Below, one piece after another: positions 133 through 5,113 of a stretch of 5,152 nucleotides of DNA (positions are counted from its first letter, which is position 1; every line of letters starts with the position of its first letter). The DNA comes from a plasmid. The stretch lies in NCBI RefSeq assembly GCF_055900595.2, contig NZ_JBVWEU010000009.1; one strand, 5' to 3'. Below the pieces are notes generated by a model that saw nothing but the letters and a program-made list of their open reading frames with translations, had not been told where the DNA came from and did not search any database. The position numbers and the translations under genes were made by a program.

Positions 133-1227
133 ATGGCAAGCTACCATTGCACAGTTAAAACTGGAGCAAAAGGCGTAGCCTTAAAACATGCTGATTACAT
201 TTCCAGATCCGGCGAATATAAAAACTATAAATCGCGGGAGGATCTGGAATTTTCTTCATCCGGTAACATGCCATCATGGGCGAAGAAAAATCCCGCAGAA
301 CTGTGGAAAGCTGCTGATGAATTTGAACGAAAAAACGGGACGGCATACCGTGAAATTGAGATCGCATTACCGCGAGAACTGACACGTGAACAACGGATAG
401 AGCTTGTTGAAGATTTCGTGCAAAAGGAACTTGGTGATCGCCATGCCTATCAGTACGCGATCCACAATCCACCAGGTGCAATTGACGGGAAGGAACAGCC
501 ACACGCGCATATCATGTTTTGCGAACGGATTAATGATGGTATTGAACGCGATCCGCAGCAGTTTTTTAAACGTGCCAACAGCAAATCACCAGAGCGGGGA
601 GGCGCAAAAAAGGCACGCTTTGGCGAGACACAACAAGAGCGAAAATCAGCCCTGGTTGCGCTACGCTCTCACTGGGCTGATGTGCAGAATGAACACCTTG
701 CGCGACACGGCCACCAGTCGCGCGTTGATCATCGTTCGCTGAAAGAACAGGGTATCAAGCGTACGCCGGAGGTGCATCTTGGTCCCGTTCGTGTTGCTGT
801 TATGAACGCTGATCAGGTTTGTGCAATTCTGGCATGGAGAAATGCGGAACGGGAGAAGCTGGAGGCCGAGAAGGAACGGGACAGCATCATTGACCTTAAA
901 ACGACCTTGAAGGAAGCGTTAGCTGAACGGGATAACATGCCACCAACCCTGGATGAGCTTGGGGCAGAATTGAAAGCGTTTGTTGAAAGCTCGTTTGATG
1001 AACTCAATGAGGTAATGCAGCTTAATTCATTGATTGACGGTGCGCTGGACACAATGATGAAGCAATTCCAGGTGGAAGAGGAGCGGAAGCTGCAACAGGA
1101 ACGACTAATTCAGGCTGCGCGAGATGAAGCCGAAAAACAAAGAGAGCTGGAGAGGGAAAGAGTGCGCCGGCGTGCGTATTCTTCACCAGCACCATCACGT
1201 TCACGCGATTATGGTATGAGCCGTTAA
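133..1227 (+). CDS. mobA: mobilization relaxase MobA (MobA/MobL family, MOBQ)
   Basis: 364-aa ORF, ATG at 133 with GGAGG at 116-120. The N-terminus MASYHCTVKTGAKGVALKHADYISRSGEY has the conserved Tyr-containing motif of MobA/MobL relaxases (compare RSF1010 MobA), and a downstream His motif (QPHAHIMF) fits the metal-binding histidine cluster. The C-terminal half is charged and coiled-coil-like (EKLEAEKER, QRELERERVRRR). It sits directly downstream of the oriT-like site. G+C is near half, typical of an enterobacterial backbone. Confidence 0.88.
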   Translation: MASYHCTVKTGAKGVALKHADYISRSGEYKNYKSREDLEFSSSGNMPSWAKKNPAELWKAADEFERKNGTAYREIEIALPRELTREQRIELVEDFVQKELGDRHAYQYAIHNPPGAIDGKEQPHAHIMFCERINDGIERDPQQFFKRANSKSPERGGAKKARFGETQQERKSALVALRSHWADVQNEHLARHGHQSRVDHRSLKEQGIKRTPEVHLGPVRVAVMNADQVCAILAWRNAEREKLEAEKERDSIIDLKTTLKEALAERDNMPPTLDELGAELKAFVESSFDELNEVMQLNSLIDGALDTMMKQFQVEEERKLQQERLIQAARDEAEKQRELERERVRRRAYSSPAPSRSRDYGMSR

Positions 1228-1248
1228 GCACTGGAGGTTTTTTATTTT

Positions 1249-1965
1249 ATGCAATTGGATGAACATTCAAGAAAAATTGCTGCCCTTGTTGCGTATAATG
1301 AAAAGCAAATAAAAGAAATAAACAGGATAATTACTCTGCTTAATGAAAGAGTGAATGATTTAAATACCTTTACAGATACTCTTGAACGTGAAGGTAAAGT
1401 TGTATCTGGAATTTCTTATTCCTTGAGAGATAGTGTGTCTCATGTTGATTTTTATCTTAATAAAGGAATGGAAGAAGTATCCTGTAAATTACAGAAATCT
1501 GTCTCAGACACACTAACATCATTACTCCGTGAAAAATTATCTTTCACACTTAATGATGTAAGGCAAGAGTGGACTGATTTTGAAGAGCAAACAAGTAAAG
1601 AGATAAAGGAATCATTAAAGCAGACGACCAGAGATGCTGAAGTTGCGACAGGTATAATTAGAAAAATAATGGAAAAGTATACAGTAACAAGGATAGTCGA
1701 AAAGGTAATTGTGTTACTTGTGTTATTTTTATTACTAATGATAGCACCTGGTTTCTATGCTGAATATCTCAAAATGAATATCGGTTCTCTAATGGAAGAA
1801 CAGAAAAAACATGAATCTATGTTAAAAGAGTGGAAGGAAAAAGCACCATTGGCAGAGTTCTCTAAGTGTGGAGAGTATAGGGAAGCATGTGTGTTAGTTG
1901 ATGATAAAAGCGGATATTATTATGATGAACAAACTCCAAATAAAAAATATGCCATACTGAAATAG
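1249..1965 (+). CDS. hypothetical bitopic membrane protein (N-terminal coiled-coil domain, one transmembrane helix, small Cys-containing C-terminal domain); AT-rich cargo gene
   Basis: 238-aa ORF. ATG at 1249 is preceded by GGAGG at 1233-1237 and starts 21 nt after the mobA stop codon (TAA 1225-1227), with no obvious promoter in between. The N-terminal ~145 aa are rich in K/E with heptad-like spacing (EKQIKEINRIITLLNERVNDLN). One strongly hydrophobic segment (IVEKVIVLLVLFLLLMIAPGFYAEYL) follows, then a ~70-aa tail with two Cys (SKCGEYREAC) and a YYYDE motif. Codon usage is visibly AT-rich, about one-third G+C by eye, unlike mobA and rep. I recognise no family. Confidence 0.6.
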   Translation: MQLDEHSRKIAALVAYNEKQIKEINRIITLLNERVNDLNTFTDTLEREGKVVSGISYSLRDSVSHVDFYLNKGMEEVSCKLQKSVSDTLTSLLREKLSFTLNDVRQEWTDFEEQTSKEIKESLKQTTRDAEVATGIIRKIMEKYTVTRIVEKVIVLLVLFLLLMIAPGFYAEYLKMNIGSLMEEQKKHESMLKEWKEKAPLAEFSKCGEYREACVLVDDKSGYYYDEQTPNKKYAILK

Positions 1966-2120
1966 TGTTAAGTAACTCATTCCGCCTTATGACTAAGGCT
2001 GCATGAGTATAAAAACTAAAAATAAATGCCCGTACCTAAAAAATGGAACTACATATACTTATGTACCTTGAGAATGACGGAGTTAATTTATCCTTTGTTG
2101 TCAAATTTTTGACCCAAACA

Positions 2121-2160
2121 GGGGCCGCTTGGTAGGGTATCTGAACTCCAATCGGTCCCC
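2121..2160 (-). terminator. candidate intrinsic terminator / GC-rich imperfect hairpin downstream of the minus-strand cargo gene
   Basis: On the minus strand, just after the stop codon (complement of 2172-2174), the sequence GGGGACCGATTGG-(15 nt)-CCAAGCGGCCCC forms an imperfect ~11-bp stem (one bulge, one mismatch) followed by UGUUUGGGUC. It is a GC-rich island in an otherwise AT-rich intergenic region between two convergent genes. The T-tract is weak, so this is only a candidate. Confidence 0.3.
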
Positions 2161-2171
2161 TCATAATGCCT

Positions 2172-2969
2172 TTATGTATTGAATTCTAATACAGGGTCGA
2201 ATTGAAACATGTCATTAAAATAACATAGTGCTGGATTACTAAATGTAATTGGTTCTGCTTCGGTATTTAGGTAATCCAACCATTCATAATAATCTTTTTT
2301 AAATTGCGTGTATGTTTCTTTTGTCATTGGTTTGAATTGATAACCAAAAGTTGTATGAAATCTATATGTGTCATGGTTTTTATGTTTCACTCCTGTTATT
2401 TCAGCAACGGAATTTCTAAAGTTGATTAGTATTTCTTTATCTGAGTTGCTTGCAGGAATTAAAGGTATAATAAAGGCTGGTTGTTTATTATCGTCCCACT
2501 CTGGAGGTAGCGATGGTGTAGATTTTAGATCTACCTTCATTGTAACAGGTTTTTCAAATCCTATTTGTTTATTTTTAAGTGTATTTGCAATTAACTTTGT
2601 CGCTTCCTCCATGCTTATATTCGTGGGGGTGTTATAAGGCCAAGGATTTTTTCTATCGCCACTAATTAAAGAAATGATAGTCATGTGATAAGAGTTTGGA
2701 GGTAATAACACAATGCAATCACCAAAATCTCGTTGAATTCGAACCTGAATATTAAGCATTGCTTTAAATAAATTGCTGTCTTTATCTGTATGGCAGATTA
2801 CGGAACATCCTTTATATTGTGCAACCTTTCCATTGCGATAAAATTTTGCGCCCTTATCAAGACCGTTGTTTTGTGCTATTTCGCATCGATTATTTTCAGC
2901 AAAAACAGTATTAGATGTTATTGCTGCTGTTACTAATGCGGAAGATTTTATAAATGTTCTTCTGTCCAT
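2172..2969 (-). CDS. Tat-signal (twin-arginine) exported protein with 2H phosphoesterase (LigT-like) motifs; AT-rich cargo gene
   Basis: The minus-strand ORF track starts at 3029, but the preferred start is the ATG at 2969 (complement of 2967-2969), preceded by AAGGAA 7 nt upstream. It gives MDRRTFIKSSALVTAAITSNTVFA-ENN: a twin-arginine motif (RRxFIK), a hydrophobic h-region and an A-x-A-like cleavage site (VFA), i.e. a Tat signal peptide. The mature part carries two H-x-T-x motifs flanked by hydrophobics, about 110 aa apart: LLPPNSYHMTIISL and YRFHTTFGYQF. This is the signature of the 2H phosphoesterase superfamily, and the first motif resembles the PPENLH-hydrophobic-T-L segment I recall in LigT. 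G+C is about one-third by eye. Confidence 0.6.
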   Translation of the reverse strand: MDRRTFIKSSALVTAAITSNTVFAENNRCEIAQNNGLDKGAKFYRNGKVAQYKGCSVICHTDKDSNLFKAMLNIQVRIQRDFGDCIVLLPPNSYHMTIISLISGDRKNPWPYNTPTNISMEEATKLIANTLKNKQIGFEKPVTMKVDLKSTPSLPPEWDDNKQPAFIIPLIPASNSDKEILINFRNSVAEITGVKHKNHDTYRFHTTFGYQFKPMTKETYTQFKKDYYEWLDYLNTEAEPITFSNPALCYFNDMFQFDPVLEFNT

Positions 2970-3014
2970 AACAGATTCCTTATTAGTGAATGTGAGTTTC
3001 TTCTTCATTAGAAG

Positions 3015-3042
3015 AATGTAAAAAAACATAAATAAAAGTCAA
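3015..3042 (-). promoter_or_regulatory. candidate sigma70 promoter for the Tat/2H-like gene
   Basis: On the minus strand: TTGACT (complement of 3037-3042), a 16-nt AT-rich spacer, then TACATT (complement of 3015-3020). This lies about 45 nt upstream of the ATG at 2969. The alternative in-frame ATGs at 3029 and 3008 would fall inside or abut this promoter and lack a Shine-Dalgarno sequence. Confidence 0.3.
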
Positions 3043-3237
3043 ACGGTAAAAAACGCCTAGGGGCTTTCACGAAACAAACGGATTTGTACGCTGAACTTTG
3101 ACGTCACCCCGTTTGGGGGAAACTCATCAGAACGCTATATCAAATTCCCGCAAAGGACTTCTCATCCAGGGGAGAAAATTTGTCATTTTGACCCGTTCGC
3201 CGTTCTGTACGGTCGAAACCGATCGCGCATCGCTTTC

Positions 3238-3439: not shown

Positions 3440-3555
3440 GAAAAACAAACGCCCCTGAAATCATGTCCAGATCCGGCAAGATTCAACATGAAATACAGGG
3501 GCGAGGTCGGTCGATAACCTGGAAGGAATCGTAACACATGAGCGCCGCGCTTCAA
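3440..3555 (-). ncRNA. candidate antisense RNA (ColE2 RNAI-like copy-number control RNA) complementary to the rep leader
   Basis: A long interrupted hairpin in the rep leader: gcccctg (3451-3457) pairs with caggggc (3496-3502), and the inner arms tcatgt (3461-3466) pair with acatga (3486-3491). On the minus strand the stem is followed directly by GUUUGUUUUUC (complement of about 3440-3450), the shape of an intrinsic terminator for a minus-strand transcript. ColE2-type replicons are known to control Rep translation with a roughly 115-nt antisense RNA against the leader. The 5' end and promoter are not resolved, so the boundaries are approximate. Confidence 0.4.
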
Positions 3556-4473
3556 TACTTCGACGAAAATTTACCCCACCGTCCCTATCACACGGATGAT
3601 CTCGCTTTTGGTCTTCGCATCTCCGGCAAAGGGCGTGCGCTTCTTGCGCGGTACATACAGCAGAACCAGCCTCATGCGCAGTTCTGGCTGGTTTTTGACG
3701 TTGACCGCGAGGGGGCAGCGATTGACTGGAGTGACCGGAACGCTCCCGCGCCGAACATCACCGTAAAAAATCCTGTGAACGGTCATGCTCACCTGCTCTA
3801 CGCGCTCAATATCGCCGTGAGAACCGCGCCGGACAGCTCGGTTAAGGCGCTGAAATACGCCGCTGCGATTGAACGTTCGCTGTGTGAGAAACTTTGTGCT
3901 GATGTGAACTACAGCGGACTGATTTGCAAAAATCCGTTCCACCTGGAATGGCAGGTGATGGAGTGGCGCGAGGAAGCCTATACCCTCGATGAACTGGCAG
4001 ATTATCTCGATTTGAGCGCCTCAGCGCGTCGTAGCATCGATAAACATTACGGGATGGGGCGAAACTGCCACCTGTTCGAAATGACGCGCAAATGGGCTTA
4101 CAGGGCGATTCGTCAGGGCTGGCCAGCATTCTCACAGTGGCTTGATGCCGTGATTCAGCGTGTCGAAATGTACAACGCATCGCTTCCCGTTCCGCTTTCT
4201 CCGGCTGAATGTCGGGCTATTGGCAGGAGCATTGCGAAATACACGCACAGGAACTTCACGCCGGAAACTTTCGCACAGTATGTGGCTGATACGCACACAC
4301 CAGAAATACAGGCCAAGAGAGGCCGGAAAGGTGGTATCGCTAAAGGCGAAGCCTACGATGACAAGCGTTTCATGGCGCTATGTATGCTGGATAATGGATA
4401 TTCTCAGAAAGCTATTGCGGCGATGCTGAATGTACATCGTAATACGATCCGTAATTGGGCAATGCACAAATAG
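3538..4473 (+). CDS. rep: ColE2-type replication initiator Rep (plasmid-specific primase-like initiator)
   Basis: 311-aa ORF, ATG at 3538 with AAGGA at 3523-3527. The N-terminus MSAALQYFDENLPHRPYHTDDLAFGLRISGKGRALLARYIQQNQPHAQFWLVFDVDREGAAIDWSDRNAPAPNITVKNP closely matches what I recall of ColE2-P9 Rep (MSAVLQRFREKLPHKPY...QNQPHA...DWSDRN.PAPNITVKNP). The C-terminus has a helix-turn-helix-like segment (YSQKAIAAMLNVHRNTIRNW). The origin motif follows directly after the stop codon, as in ColE2. G+C is near or above half. Confidence 0.9.
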   Translation: MSAALQYFDENLPHRPYHTDDLAFGLRISGKGRALLARYIQQNQPHAQFWLVFDVDREGAAIDWSDRNAPAPNITVKNPVNGHAHLLYALNIAVRTAPDSSVKALKYAAAIERSLCEKLCADVNYSGLICKNPFHLEWQVMEWREEAYTLDELADYLDLSASARRSIDKHYGMGRNCHLFEMTRKWAYRAIRQGWPAFSQWLDAVIQRVEMYNASLPVPLSPAECRAIGRSIAKYTHRNFTPETFAQYVADTHTPEIQAKRGRKGGIAKGEAYDDKRFMALCMLDNGYSQKAIAAMLNVHRNTIRNWAMHK

Positions 4474-4666: not shown

Positions 4667-5113
4667 TTACGCACTGTCTTTGGTTAGTAGCTTCTTCCCG
4701 CGTCTTTCCCATTCCTGCCATTTTGGATGGTTGCGCGGTAGCTCTGCGATTCCTGCGAGTGCGCCTACCAGTTCGGCAGCACTACACTTTGGTTTTCCGG
4801 TTTTGCTGTCCACCAGTCCTGCCACAATCATGAGGCCTGCGGCCTTGTAGAGTTCATGATCCCGCGCTTTTCGTTCCGCCCTTGCGGCTGCCTTCCGTTC
4901 TGCCGCTATGATTGCCGTTACCCTGGCTTTTGCTGCGGCTGCTTTCTCTGCGGTTTTTTCTGCCCGTATCAGTGCGGATAACGTTTTTTCATCCGTCGTT
5001 GTTCGGTTTTTTTTCTCTGCCAGTAACACAAGTAATCTCTGCTGCTCTGACGGTGATTTCAGTCCGTTGATGTAGGCAATTTTTGCACTTAACCACTCTT
5101 CACGATTTGTCAT
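4667..5113 (-). CDS. mobC: MobC-like mobilization accessory protein (divergent from mobA across oriT if the molecule is circular)
   Basis: 148-aa minus-strand ORF. ATG is the complement of 5111-5113, with GAGGT 5 nt upstream. The protein is Ala/Lys/Arg/Glu-rich and helical (EKTAEKAAAAKARVTAIIAAERKAAARAERKARDHELYKAAGLMIVAGL, ELVGALAGIAELPRNHP), like the small oriT-binding accessory proteins found beside MOBQ relaxases. Its start is 39 bp from the window end; joining the end to the start puts it divergent from mobA with oriT between them, as mobC/oriT/mobA is arranged in RSF1010-type plasmids. The family call rests on position and composition, not on a recognised motif. Confidence 0.5.
   Translation of the reverse strand: MTNREEWLSAKIAYINGLKSPSEQQRLLVLLAEKKNRTTTDEKTLSALIRAEKTAEKAAAAKARVTAIIAAERKAAARAERKARDHELYKAAGLMIVAGLVDSKTGKPKCSAAELVGALAGIAELPRNHPKWQEWERRGKKLLTKDSA

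Follow-up and report, generated by a model that had tools for sequence, protein, structure and literature searches.

A 5,152-nucleotide stretch of plasmid DNA, contig NZ_JBVWEU010000009.1 of assembly GCF_055900595.2 and here called the window, carries a gene for a 2H phosphoesterase with a predicted twin-arginine (Tat) export signal. The gene lies on the minus strand at positions 2172–2969 and specifies a protein of 265 residues. The protein is a member of the 2H superfamily, specifically of the DUF1868/Atu0111/Mlr3352 family, the function of which is uncharacterised. Our preferred interpretation, to which we assign a probability of about 0.5, is that the protein is exported by the Tat route to the periplasm and acts there as a (cyclic) phosphodiesterase on scavenged sugar or polyol phosphodiesters. 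We infer its export route, catalytic activity, substrate class, and benefit to the host from the lines of evidence set out below.

The coding sequence, that of a DUF1868/2H phosphoesterase precursor, runs from an ATG at 2969–2967 to a stop codon at 2172–2174. A first-pass annotation of the window, made from the letters alone, had placed the protein in the 2H superfamily because it contains two H-x-T motifs, each following an aromatic residue. The peptides quoted there are exact: MDRRTFIKSSALVTAAITSNTVFA, the N-terminus, is encoded at 2898–2969, HMTI at 2676–2687, and HTTF at 2346–2357. The first motif, H95-M-T97-I (residues 95–98; minus strand), comes after the invariant S93, and the second, H205-T-T207-F (residues 205–208; minus strand), comes before the invariant Y210. 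The flanking aromatic residues are likewise as described, YHMTI at residues 94–98 and FHTTF at 204–208, with the two histidines 110 residues apart. By itself, the H-x-T motif is weak evidence for 2H membership: the protein contains three H-x-[TS] sites where shuffling predicts 0.69 (P = 0.02). Such a count is mildly unusual; the significance of the assignment rests on the Pfam profile, the match to a solved structure, and the invariant residues.

Specifically, residues 42–147 match Pfam family PF08975, “2H-phosphodiest” (DUF1868), with an E value of 1.2e-20. Atu0111 of Agrobacterium (PDB 2FSQ), the sole solved relative found by sequence, aligns over residues 40–263 (E 1.5e-13), and the alignment pairs both motifs, SLHMTV with SYHMTI and FHITLSY with FHTTFGY. 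Searching 1.84 billion cluster representatives by sequence yielded 555 relatives. Across the aligned family representatives (n = 136), S93, H95, T97, R185, H205, and Y210 are invariant, while K42, F43, G47, G54, P90, R107, and W110, all found in the query, show conservation of at least 90%. The AlphaFold2 model built from this 136-sequence alignment (predicted local distance difference test, pLDDT, 89.4; predicted template modelling score, pTM, 0.83; low confidence at residues 1–39) predicts a two-lobed alpha+beta fold in which the strands bearing the two motifs face a central cleft. The 2H assignment is firm because PF08975, 2FSQ, the invariant residues, and the predicted fold agree, and this part of the first-pass annotation stands.

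A Foldseek search against AFDB50 returned DUF1868 proteins of bacteria and of many fungi, plus Mlr3352 of Mesorhizobium, reportedly the name-giver of one 2H family of Mazumder et al. 2002; equating DUF1868 with the “mlr3352-like family” rests on this match together with that name. The fungal proteins, some of which bear the name “RNA ligase/cyclic nucleotide phosphodiesterase,” include those of Trichoderma, Exophiala, Podospora, Mycena, and the yeast Sugiyamaella; both bacteria and fungi thus have members of the family. Among the more remote structural neighbours, LigT and AKAP18 are closer than the 2H enzymes that degrade nucleotide signals, which lie far below Atu0111. Membership of the LigT/ThpR family itself (PF02834, PF13563) was ruled out, as there is no such Pfam match and identity is 9–15%. 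For the DUF1868 protein, NCBIfam contains no matching model, the Pfam search gave no match to Metallophos, and neither PADLOC nor PHROGs returned a match.

Ahead of the conserved domain, the protein carries a predicted Tat signal peptide, residues 1–24 (2898–2969, minus strand), identified from the translation, profiles, and homologues. In MDRRTFIKSSALVTAAITSNTVFA, the segment D-R-R-T-F-I-K leads into a mildly hydrophobic, Ser/Thr-rich h-region, SSALVTAAITSNTVFA, and then into VFA followed by E, the predicted cleavage site; the whole fits the Tat consensus. Residues 1–39 precede the conserved domain and receive low confidence in the model, and the signal segment does not belong to the fold. 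The RR motif is kept in the 72% identical homologue of E. coli IncF plasmids and in the 54% identical homologue of Salmonella, while a 46% identical homologue has KR. Among the 136 family representatives, 32 place an RR-x-hydrophobic motif and an h-region ahead of the domain, 5 have other hydrophobic N-termini of Sec-like or transmembrane-like character (at least 2 of which resemble RR/KR variants), and 99 have no N-terminal signal. Members with an export signal are almost exclusively of the Tat type, which suggests that the domain folds before export. The first-pass annotation had called an exported 2H enzyme unusual. Measured against characterised 2H enzymes, this holds; within the family it does not, as about a quarter of the representatives (32/136) carry Tat-like signals. 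A lipoprotein was considered and dropped for want of a lipobox.

The ATG at 2969 is the supported translation start. A Shine–Dalgarno sequence, AAGGA, lies at 2977–2981 (minus strand), 7 nucleotides 5′ of this ATG, and AAGG stands at the matching position 5′ of three homologous genes. Aligned with the homologues of 72%, 54%, and 46% identity, whose products begin MDRR, MNRR, and MKKR, the gene shows its ribosome-binding site and its start at 2969 in register with their starts. A candidate promoter, TTGACT-16 nt-TACATT, occupies 3015–3042 (minus strand) by consensus match, although promoter-like sites in the region do not exceed the number found in shuffled sequence. Were this promoter used, the transcript would start downstream of the ATG at 3029. 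Some annotations use longer frames, of 285 residues from 3029 or 278 residues from the ATG at 3008; these starts are not conserved and have no ribosome-binding site, and we dropped them. The upstream regions of the four closest genes share the ribosome-binding site and start, with no conserved regulatory box seen and no Pho box found by eye. No intrinsic terminator was found near the DUF1868 gene. Identical proteins from E. coli and Salmonella are deposited at NCBI as “DUF1868 domain-containing protein.”

A link between the predicted signal and nutrient transport emerges from the gene neighbourhoods of relatives. We compared 80 loci from species-representative genomes, 49 with a Tat-bearing and 31 with a signal-less protein (Tat calls were automatic, plus four receptor-linked loci assigned by eye), using Fisher tests that are not phylogeny-corrected. 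The Tat-bearing proteins occur, among others, in Pantoea, Dickeya, the Pseudomonas viridiflava group, Sphingomonas, Novosphingobium, Azospirillum, Duganella, and several Acidobacteria. A gene for a TonB-dependent receptor lies directly upstream on the same strand in 20/49 Tat loci versus 0/31 signal-less loci (p 9e-6). ATP-binding cassette (ABC) permease genes show the reverse, being nearby in 1/49 Tat versus 17/31 signal-less loci (p 4e-8), and inositol monophosphatase (IMPase)-family genes are adjacent in 0/49 versus 7/31 (p 8e-4). ROK regulators are found near both kinds (19/49 and 12/31). The predicted signal is likely to be biologically meaningful, because it would place the enzyme in whichever compartment receives the cargo of its linked transporter. 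Tat export of the plasmid protein, which the first-pass annotation had proposed, is supported as a prediction by the motif, its conservation in orthologues, the 49/80 relatives with a Tat-like signal, and the type of linked transporter.

The two kinds of locus differ in their composition. On metagenomic contigs encoding Tat-bearing proteins, a recurrent arrangement is a divergent ROK gene, a TonB-dependent receptor gene, and the DUF1868 gene, with a receptor–enzyme gap of 0–3 bp; nearby are major facilitator superfamily (MFS) transporter genes, glycerophosphodiesterase (GDPD) genes, and, once, a PI-PLC-like gene. Signal-less copies on plasmids of Alloyangia, Thioclava, and Rhizobium etli follow a different plan: ROK, then a UgpB-like substrate-binding protein, two permeases, UgpC, DUF1868, and an “inositol monophosphatase,” which in one UgpC-type operon is followed by a GDPD. 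Cassettes of GDPD, IMPase, and DUF1868 also occur. In Rhizobium and Deinococcus, DUF1868 closes an operon for a PotD-type ABC importer that ROK or LacI controls; in Kosakonia, where the gene order is GDPD-ROK-DUF1868, the ABC operon runs divergently. The GDPD partners have signal peptides in the receptor (Tat) loci and none in the ABC operons. The MFS partners are mostly glycoside-pentoside-hexuronide (GPH) sugar symporters. Taken together, these contexts point to a family engaged in uptake and catabolism of a phosphorylated compound of sugar or polyol type, and not in RNA repair.

Additional features were observed at individual loci. Some of the multi-gene receptor loci (L039, L054, L094, L017, L021) hold a second TonB-dependent receptor, two to three ROK genes, and an exported GDPD, and one of them also has a PI-PLC-like gene; by gene content they look like “carbohydrate utilisation with TonB receptor” loci for a phosphorylated substrate, and they come mostly from plant- and soil-associated bacteria. 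The Tat-bearing copies of Pantoea, Dickeya, and Pseudomonas are stand-alone genes, like that of the plasmid, and share no common neighbour theme (chemoreceptors, AhpCF, a phosphonate-type acetyltransferase, and a CoA-transferase were among their neighbours). In Dickeya oryzae (L057, 5933–6781), a gene for a hexapeptide-repeat transferase divergently adjoins the Tat-bearing gene and scores above the cut-off of TIGR03308 (“phosphonate metabolism protein, transferase family”), which could be a link to phosphorus metabolism or a coincidence. The 54% identical Salmonella homologue (L010, 8001–8795) lies about 5–6 kb from genes for an AppA-family phytase/acid phosphatase and a porin (693–3159), and the 46% identical homologue (L013) divergently adjoins a porin gene. 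In loci of this enteric type, the outer-membrane function may fall to porins.

We propose the following mechanism. The Tat signal would send the folded, cofactor-free enzyme to the periplasm, with cleavage after VFA24. There, H95 and H205, placed in the cleft between the two lobes, would act with S93, R185, and Y210 in general acid–base catalysis. 2H enzymes use their two histidines as general acid and base either to open five-membered cyclic phosphates or to cleave 2′-5′ or 3′-5′ diesters; the cyclic phosphodiesterase (CPDase) of plants and yeast opens a sugar 1″,2″-cyclic phosphate, and GDPD/PI-PLC-type enzymes work through 1,2-cyclic phosphates, which some of them release. The most likely substrate of the plasmid enzyme would be a five-membered cyclic phosphate or a related sugar or polyol diester, for example, glycerol- or inositol-1,2-cyclic phosphate or compounds of glycerophospho-sugar type, and the products could serve as phosphorus or carbon sources. 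In relatives, the enzyme would form one step of a ROK-regulated uptake pathway and would be placed where its substrate arrives: in the periplasm when its partner is a TonB-dependent receptor and in the cytoplasm when it is an ABC importer. Following import, a GDPD-type enzyme would cleave the phosphodiester and DUF1868 would open the cyclic or residual diester. Finally, an IMPase-family phosphatase would remove the monoester in the cytoplasmic branch, or a sugar symporter would take up the products in the periplasmic branch. On the plasmid, the gene would add a single periplasmic organophosphate-scavenging activity to E. coli or Salmonella.

Several points weigh against this proposal. The Tat profile scores are borderline, 18.1 bits (E 0.0026) for Pfam TAT_signal (PF10518) and 14.0 bits against a cut-off of 16.7 for TIGR01409. 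The scan of genomes started from sequences that bear a Tat signal and are linked to receptors, which biases the sample toward receptor-linked members, and 24/49 Tat-bearing loci have no marker neighbour at all. The idea of a cyclic phosphate is drawn by analogy from the chemistry of other 2H enzymes and of GDPD/PI-PLC enzymes, and we found no activity, export, or phenotype data for any DUF1868 protein in the literature. Moreover, the E. coli/Salmonella clade to which the plasmid protein belongs has no linked receptor, regulator, or transporter, so the substrate of the plasmid enzyme is extrapolated from relatives of 25–35% identity. This clade has, in addition, an extra loop of its own at about residues 149–166 that could alter specificity. 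Transfer to a stand-alone clade at this distance, carrying this loop, is the weakest link of the proposal.

Of the other explanations, a role in nucleotide salvage survives best, although we regard it as doubtful. Under this explanation, the protein is a 2H analogue of CpdB, that is, a periplasmic phosphodiesterase of 2′,3′-cyclic nucleotides or RNA ends, and would open 2′,3′-cyclic phosphates generated by periplasmic or extracellular RNases such as RNase I. The idea is plausible because the chemistry is identical and because IMPase-type enzymes, which adjoin the cytoplasmic relatives, accept 2′-nucleoside monophosphates, the product of 2H cyclic phosphodiesterases. Furthermore, every characterised structural neighbour acts on nucleotide or ribose cyclic phosphates or on 2′-5′ links, and the linked MFS transporters include some that are similar to the Bcr/CflA group and match the nucleoside transporter PunC weakly. 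However, the inspected neighbourhoods held no recognisable RNase, nucleosidase, nucleoside phosphorylase, or nucleoside transporter, and the recurrent partners there are UgpB/UgpC-like transporters, GDPDs, GPH symporters, and sugar-type ROK regulators. The low identity to LigT/ThpR and the missing LigT Pfam match also argue against it, and E. coli already has CpdB for this role. Given contexts of UgpB/UgpC, GDPD, IMPase, GPH, and ROK, the nucleotide substrates that the first-pass annotation had offered as speculation (2′,3′-cyclic or 2′-5′-linked nucleotides and nucleotide signals) are not favoured.

Retention of the protein in the cytoplasm, as presumed for Atu0111, appears improbable. In that event, the RR-containing N-terminus would be a chance occurrence, a membrane anchor, or a Sec signal, which would accord with the sub-threshold TIGR01409 score, the marginal TAT_signal score, and the signal-less majority of the family (99/136). 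Yet the N-terminal 39 residues fall outside the domain and are modelled with low confidence, RR-x-F-[ILV]-K and the h-region are conserved in orthologues and in dozens of distant relatives, and the presence of a signal predicts an outer-membrane receptor as partner just as its absence predicts an ABC importer.

It is also conceivable that an exported enzyme destroys nucleotide signals. Acb1, the poxvirus cyclic GMP-AMP (cGAMP) phosphodiesterases, and coronavirus ns2 degrade such signals inside cells. An exported counterpart would act on cyclic di- or oligonucleotides, 2′3′-cGAMP, or 2′-5′ oligoadenylate and would blunt signalling by hosts or competitors. As an account of the protein, this is a long shot: the signal-degrading enzymes match its structure less closely than LigT or AKAP18 do, the searches of defence (PADLOC) and phage (PHROG) families were empty, and the family resides mostly in soil- and plant-associated bacteria and in fungi, in nutrient-uptake operons. 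A form restricted to the plasmid clade, in which the exported 2H enzyme scavenges no nutrient and instead destroys 2′,3′-cyclic nucleoside monophosphates, cyclic di- or oligonucleotides, and such host 2′3′-cGAMP or 2′-5′ oligoadenylate as reaches the periplasm, we likewise hold to be improbable. If true, it would make the plasmid protein a mobile bacterial, extracytoplasmic counterpart of viral 2H immune-evasion enzymes.

Least probable of all is that the protein is a catalytically silent, ligand-binding 2H fold, as proposed for the central domain of AKAP18, or an esterase of non-phosphate substrates: both histidines, both Thr/Ser positions, S93, R185, and Y210 are invariant (n = 136), as in an active site, and the operon partners are hydrolytic enzymes of phosphate metabolism. 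The context dichotomy and the invariant active-site residues make lack of export and lack of catalysis unlikely. Colicin or tRNase immunity, or RNA repair, which might be considered for a Col-type plasmid, was dropped since a periplasmic enzyme cannot reach cytoplasmic RNA damage.

The DUF1868 gene is stand-alone, foreign, low-GC cargo of its plasmid. The first-pass annotation had taken the element for a small mobilizable plasmid, and the window indeed has a Col156/MOBQ backbone with genes for a MobQ/MobA relaxase (133–1227, plus strand), a replication initiation protein (3538–4473, plus strand), and a TraD-like protein (4667–5113, minus strand). This backbone is 90–97% identical to about 1000 small plasmids of E. 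coli, Salmonella, Klebsiella, and Shigella; the closest to the window is pSCU-106-7, typed Col156/MOBQ. The window is probably the entire plasmid, given that draft-assembly contigs of exactly 5152 bp encode the target protein.

Within this backbone, a low-GC segment at about 2116–3179, delimited by GC values and by alignment with pSCU-106-7, has DUF1868 as its only gene. The segment is about 35% GC compared with 51% for the backbone, and the gene itself is 33% GC, with similar values for its E. coli IncF and Salmonella relatives. Searches of PLSDB and of 5,426 complete E. coli genomes found no near-identical DNA. In sister Col156/MOBQ plasmids (pSCU-106-7, L009), the same slot holds a gene for a LysE-family amino-acid exporter, and the cargo at this position thus varies, whereas the rest of the backbone is conserved. 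The cargo is bracketed by a direct repeat, TTGTCA(AAT)TTTTGACCC. Its left copy, TTGTCAAATTTTTGACCC, lies at 2098–2115 (plus strand), and its right copy, TTGTCATTTTGACCC, lies at 3180–3194 (plus strand) within the backbone and is partly present in the sister plasmid; the repeat has two matches in the window versus none in 200 shuffles. The sister plasmid has repeat-related sequence at the right-hand site only. The repeat may mark a site or mechanism of cargo exchange.

Two further observations concern plasmid genes. The 72% identical, Tat-bearing paralogue, WP_025492077.1, is carried by E. coli IncF plasmids (L001–L008, L116; 8001–8801 / 5001–5801), where it is flanked on one side by rop, pemIK, and a microcin B17-type operon and on the opposite side by stbB/parM; judged by these flanks, the region looks like the remnant of a small plasmid captured by IncF plasmids. 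The remaining gene of the window, a conserved hypothetical at 1249–1965 (plus strand), encodes 238 residues at 32.6% GC; its product shows coiled-coil character and has a single hydrophobic helix at the C-terminus. The gene is 89–95% identical in DNA across hundreds of small E. coli plasmids, where it is annotated as hypothetical, and its sole match is a weak one to AbiZ (PADLOC, E 1.5e-4). An Rfam search of the window gave no match.

The settings in which the 2H superfamily is known, namely RNA repair, tRNA splicing, myelin (as CNPase), and viral immune evasion, are all intracellular. The DUF1868/Mlr3352-like family has had a crystal structure since 2006, and the plasmid protein is a new, already deposited member of this known, uncharacterised family. 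In the searchable literature, we found nothing on DUF1868 function or on exported bacterial 2H enzymes, no description of a Tat-exported DUF1868 branch coupled to TonB-dependent receptors, and none of DUF1868 contexts that point to catabolism of phosphodiester nutrients. Here, we describe a large DUF1868 branch with predicted Tat signals as translationally coupled to TonB-dependent receptors. Both it and the signal-less branch, whose genes close ABC-importer operons, are found under ROK regulators and beside GDPDs. The family thereby gains a testable role as the (cyclic) phosphodiesterase step in the use of sugar or polyol phosphodiesters. For the plasmid, the meaning is modest: the gene is a foreign, single-gene cargo that none of the libraries tested marks as a resistance, toxin, or defence gene, and it may widen the scavenging of organophosphates in the periplasm of gut E. 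coli and Salmonella.

How does the plasmid protein compare with known systems? Its nearest structural counterpart, Atu0111 (2FSQ), belongs to the same PF08975 family, has no signal peptide, and is presumably cytoplasmic, whereas the plasmid protein has a 24-residue Tat-type signal, a 15-residue linker, and the loop near residues 149–166. LigT/ThpR and the archaeal 2′-5′ RNA ligases form a different family of cytoplasmic proteins of about 170–185 residues that act on RNA or nucleotides, in contrast to the DUF1868 relatives, whose genes lie in nutrient-uptake operons. The plant and yeast CPDase (1FSI), a distant eukaryotic relative, is cytoplasmic and opens ADP-ribose 1″,2″-cyclic phosphate, clearing a by-product of tRNA splicing.

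Regarding location, the closest functional analogue is CpdB of E. coli, a periplasmic 2′,3′-cyclic-nucleotide 2′-phosphodiesterase/3′-nucleotidase (PMC5283653). Like the activity proposed here, that of CpdB opens cyclic phosphates in the periplasm for scavenging, but CpdB has a binuclear metallophosphoesterase fold, is Sec-exported, and has no sequence similarity to the plasmid protein. Regarding export, AmiA/AmiC, SufI, and phosphatases/phospholipases such as PhoD and PlcH are Tat substrates that have no cofactor. They resemble the plasmid protein in joining an RR signal to a hydrolase without a cofactor inserted in the cytoplasm; the signal of the plasmid protein has a moderately hydrophobic h-region and an AxA-type cleavage site. 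They are not homologous to it, and its own Tat dependence is predicted.

Finally, the operon logic is that of systems for glycerophosphodiester and sugar-phosphodiester catabolism. The operons of signal-less relatives resemble the Ugp/UgpQ and GlpQ systems in combining an importer of the ABC type and its substrate-binding protein with a GDPD and an IMPase under a sugar-type repressor. The agrocinopine acc operon follows a similar logic, with AccF, a GDPD-type diesterase, and AccG, an IMPase-type phosphatase. The Ugp/UgpQ, GlpQ, and acc systems contain no 2H enzyme, and DUF1868 would thus constitute an additional conserved step in the relatives. The exported DUF1868 branch, unlike Ugp-type systems, has a TonB-dependent receptor in place of the importer.

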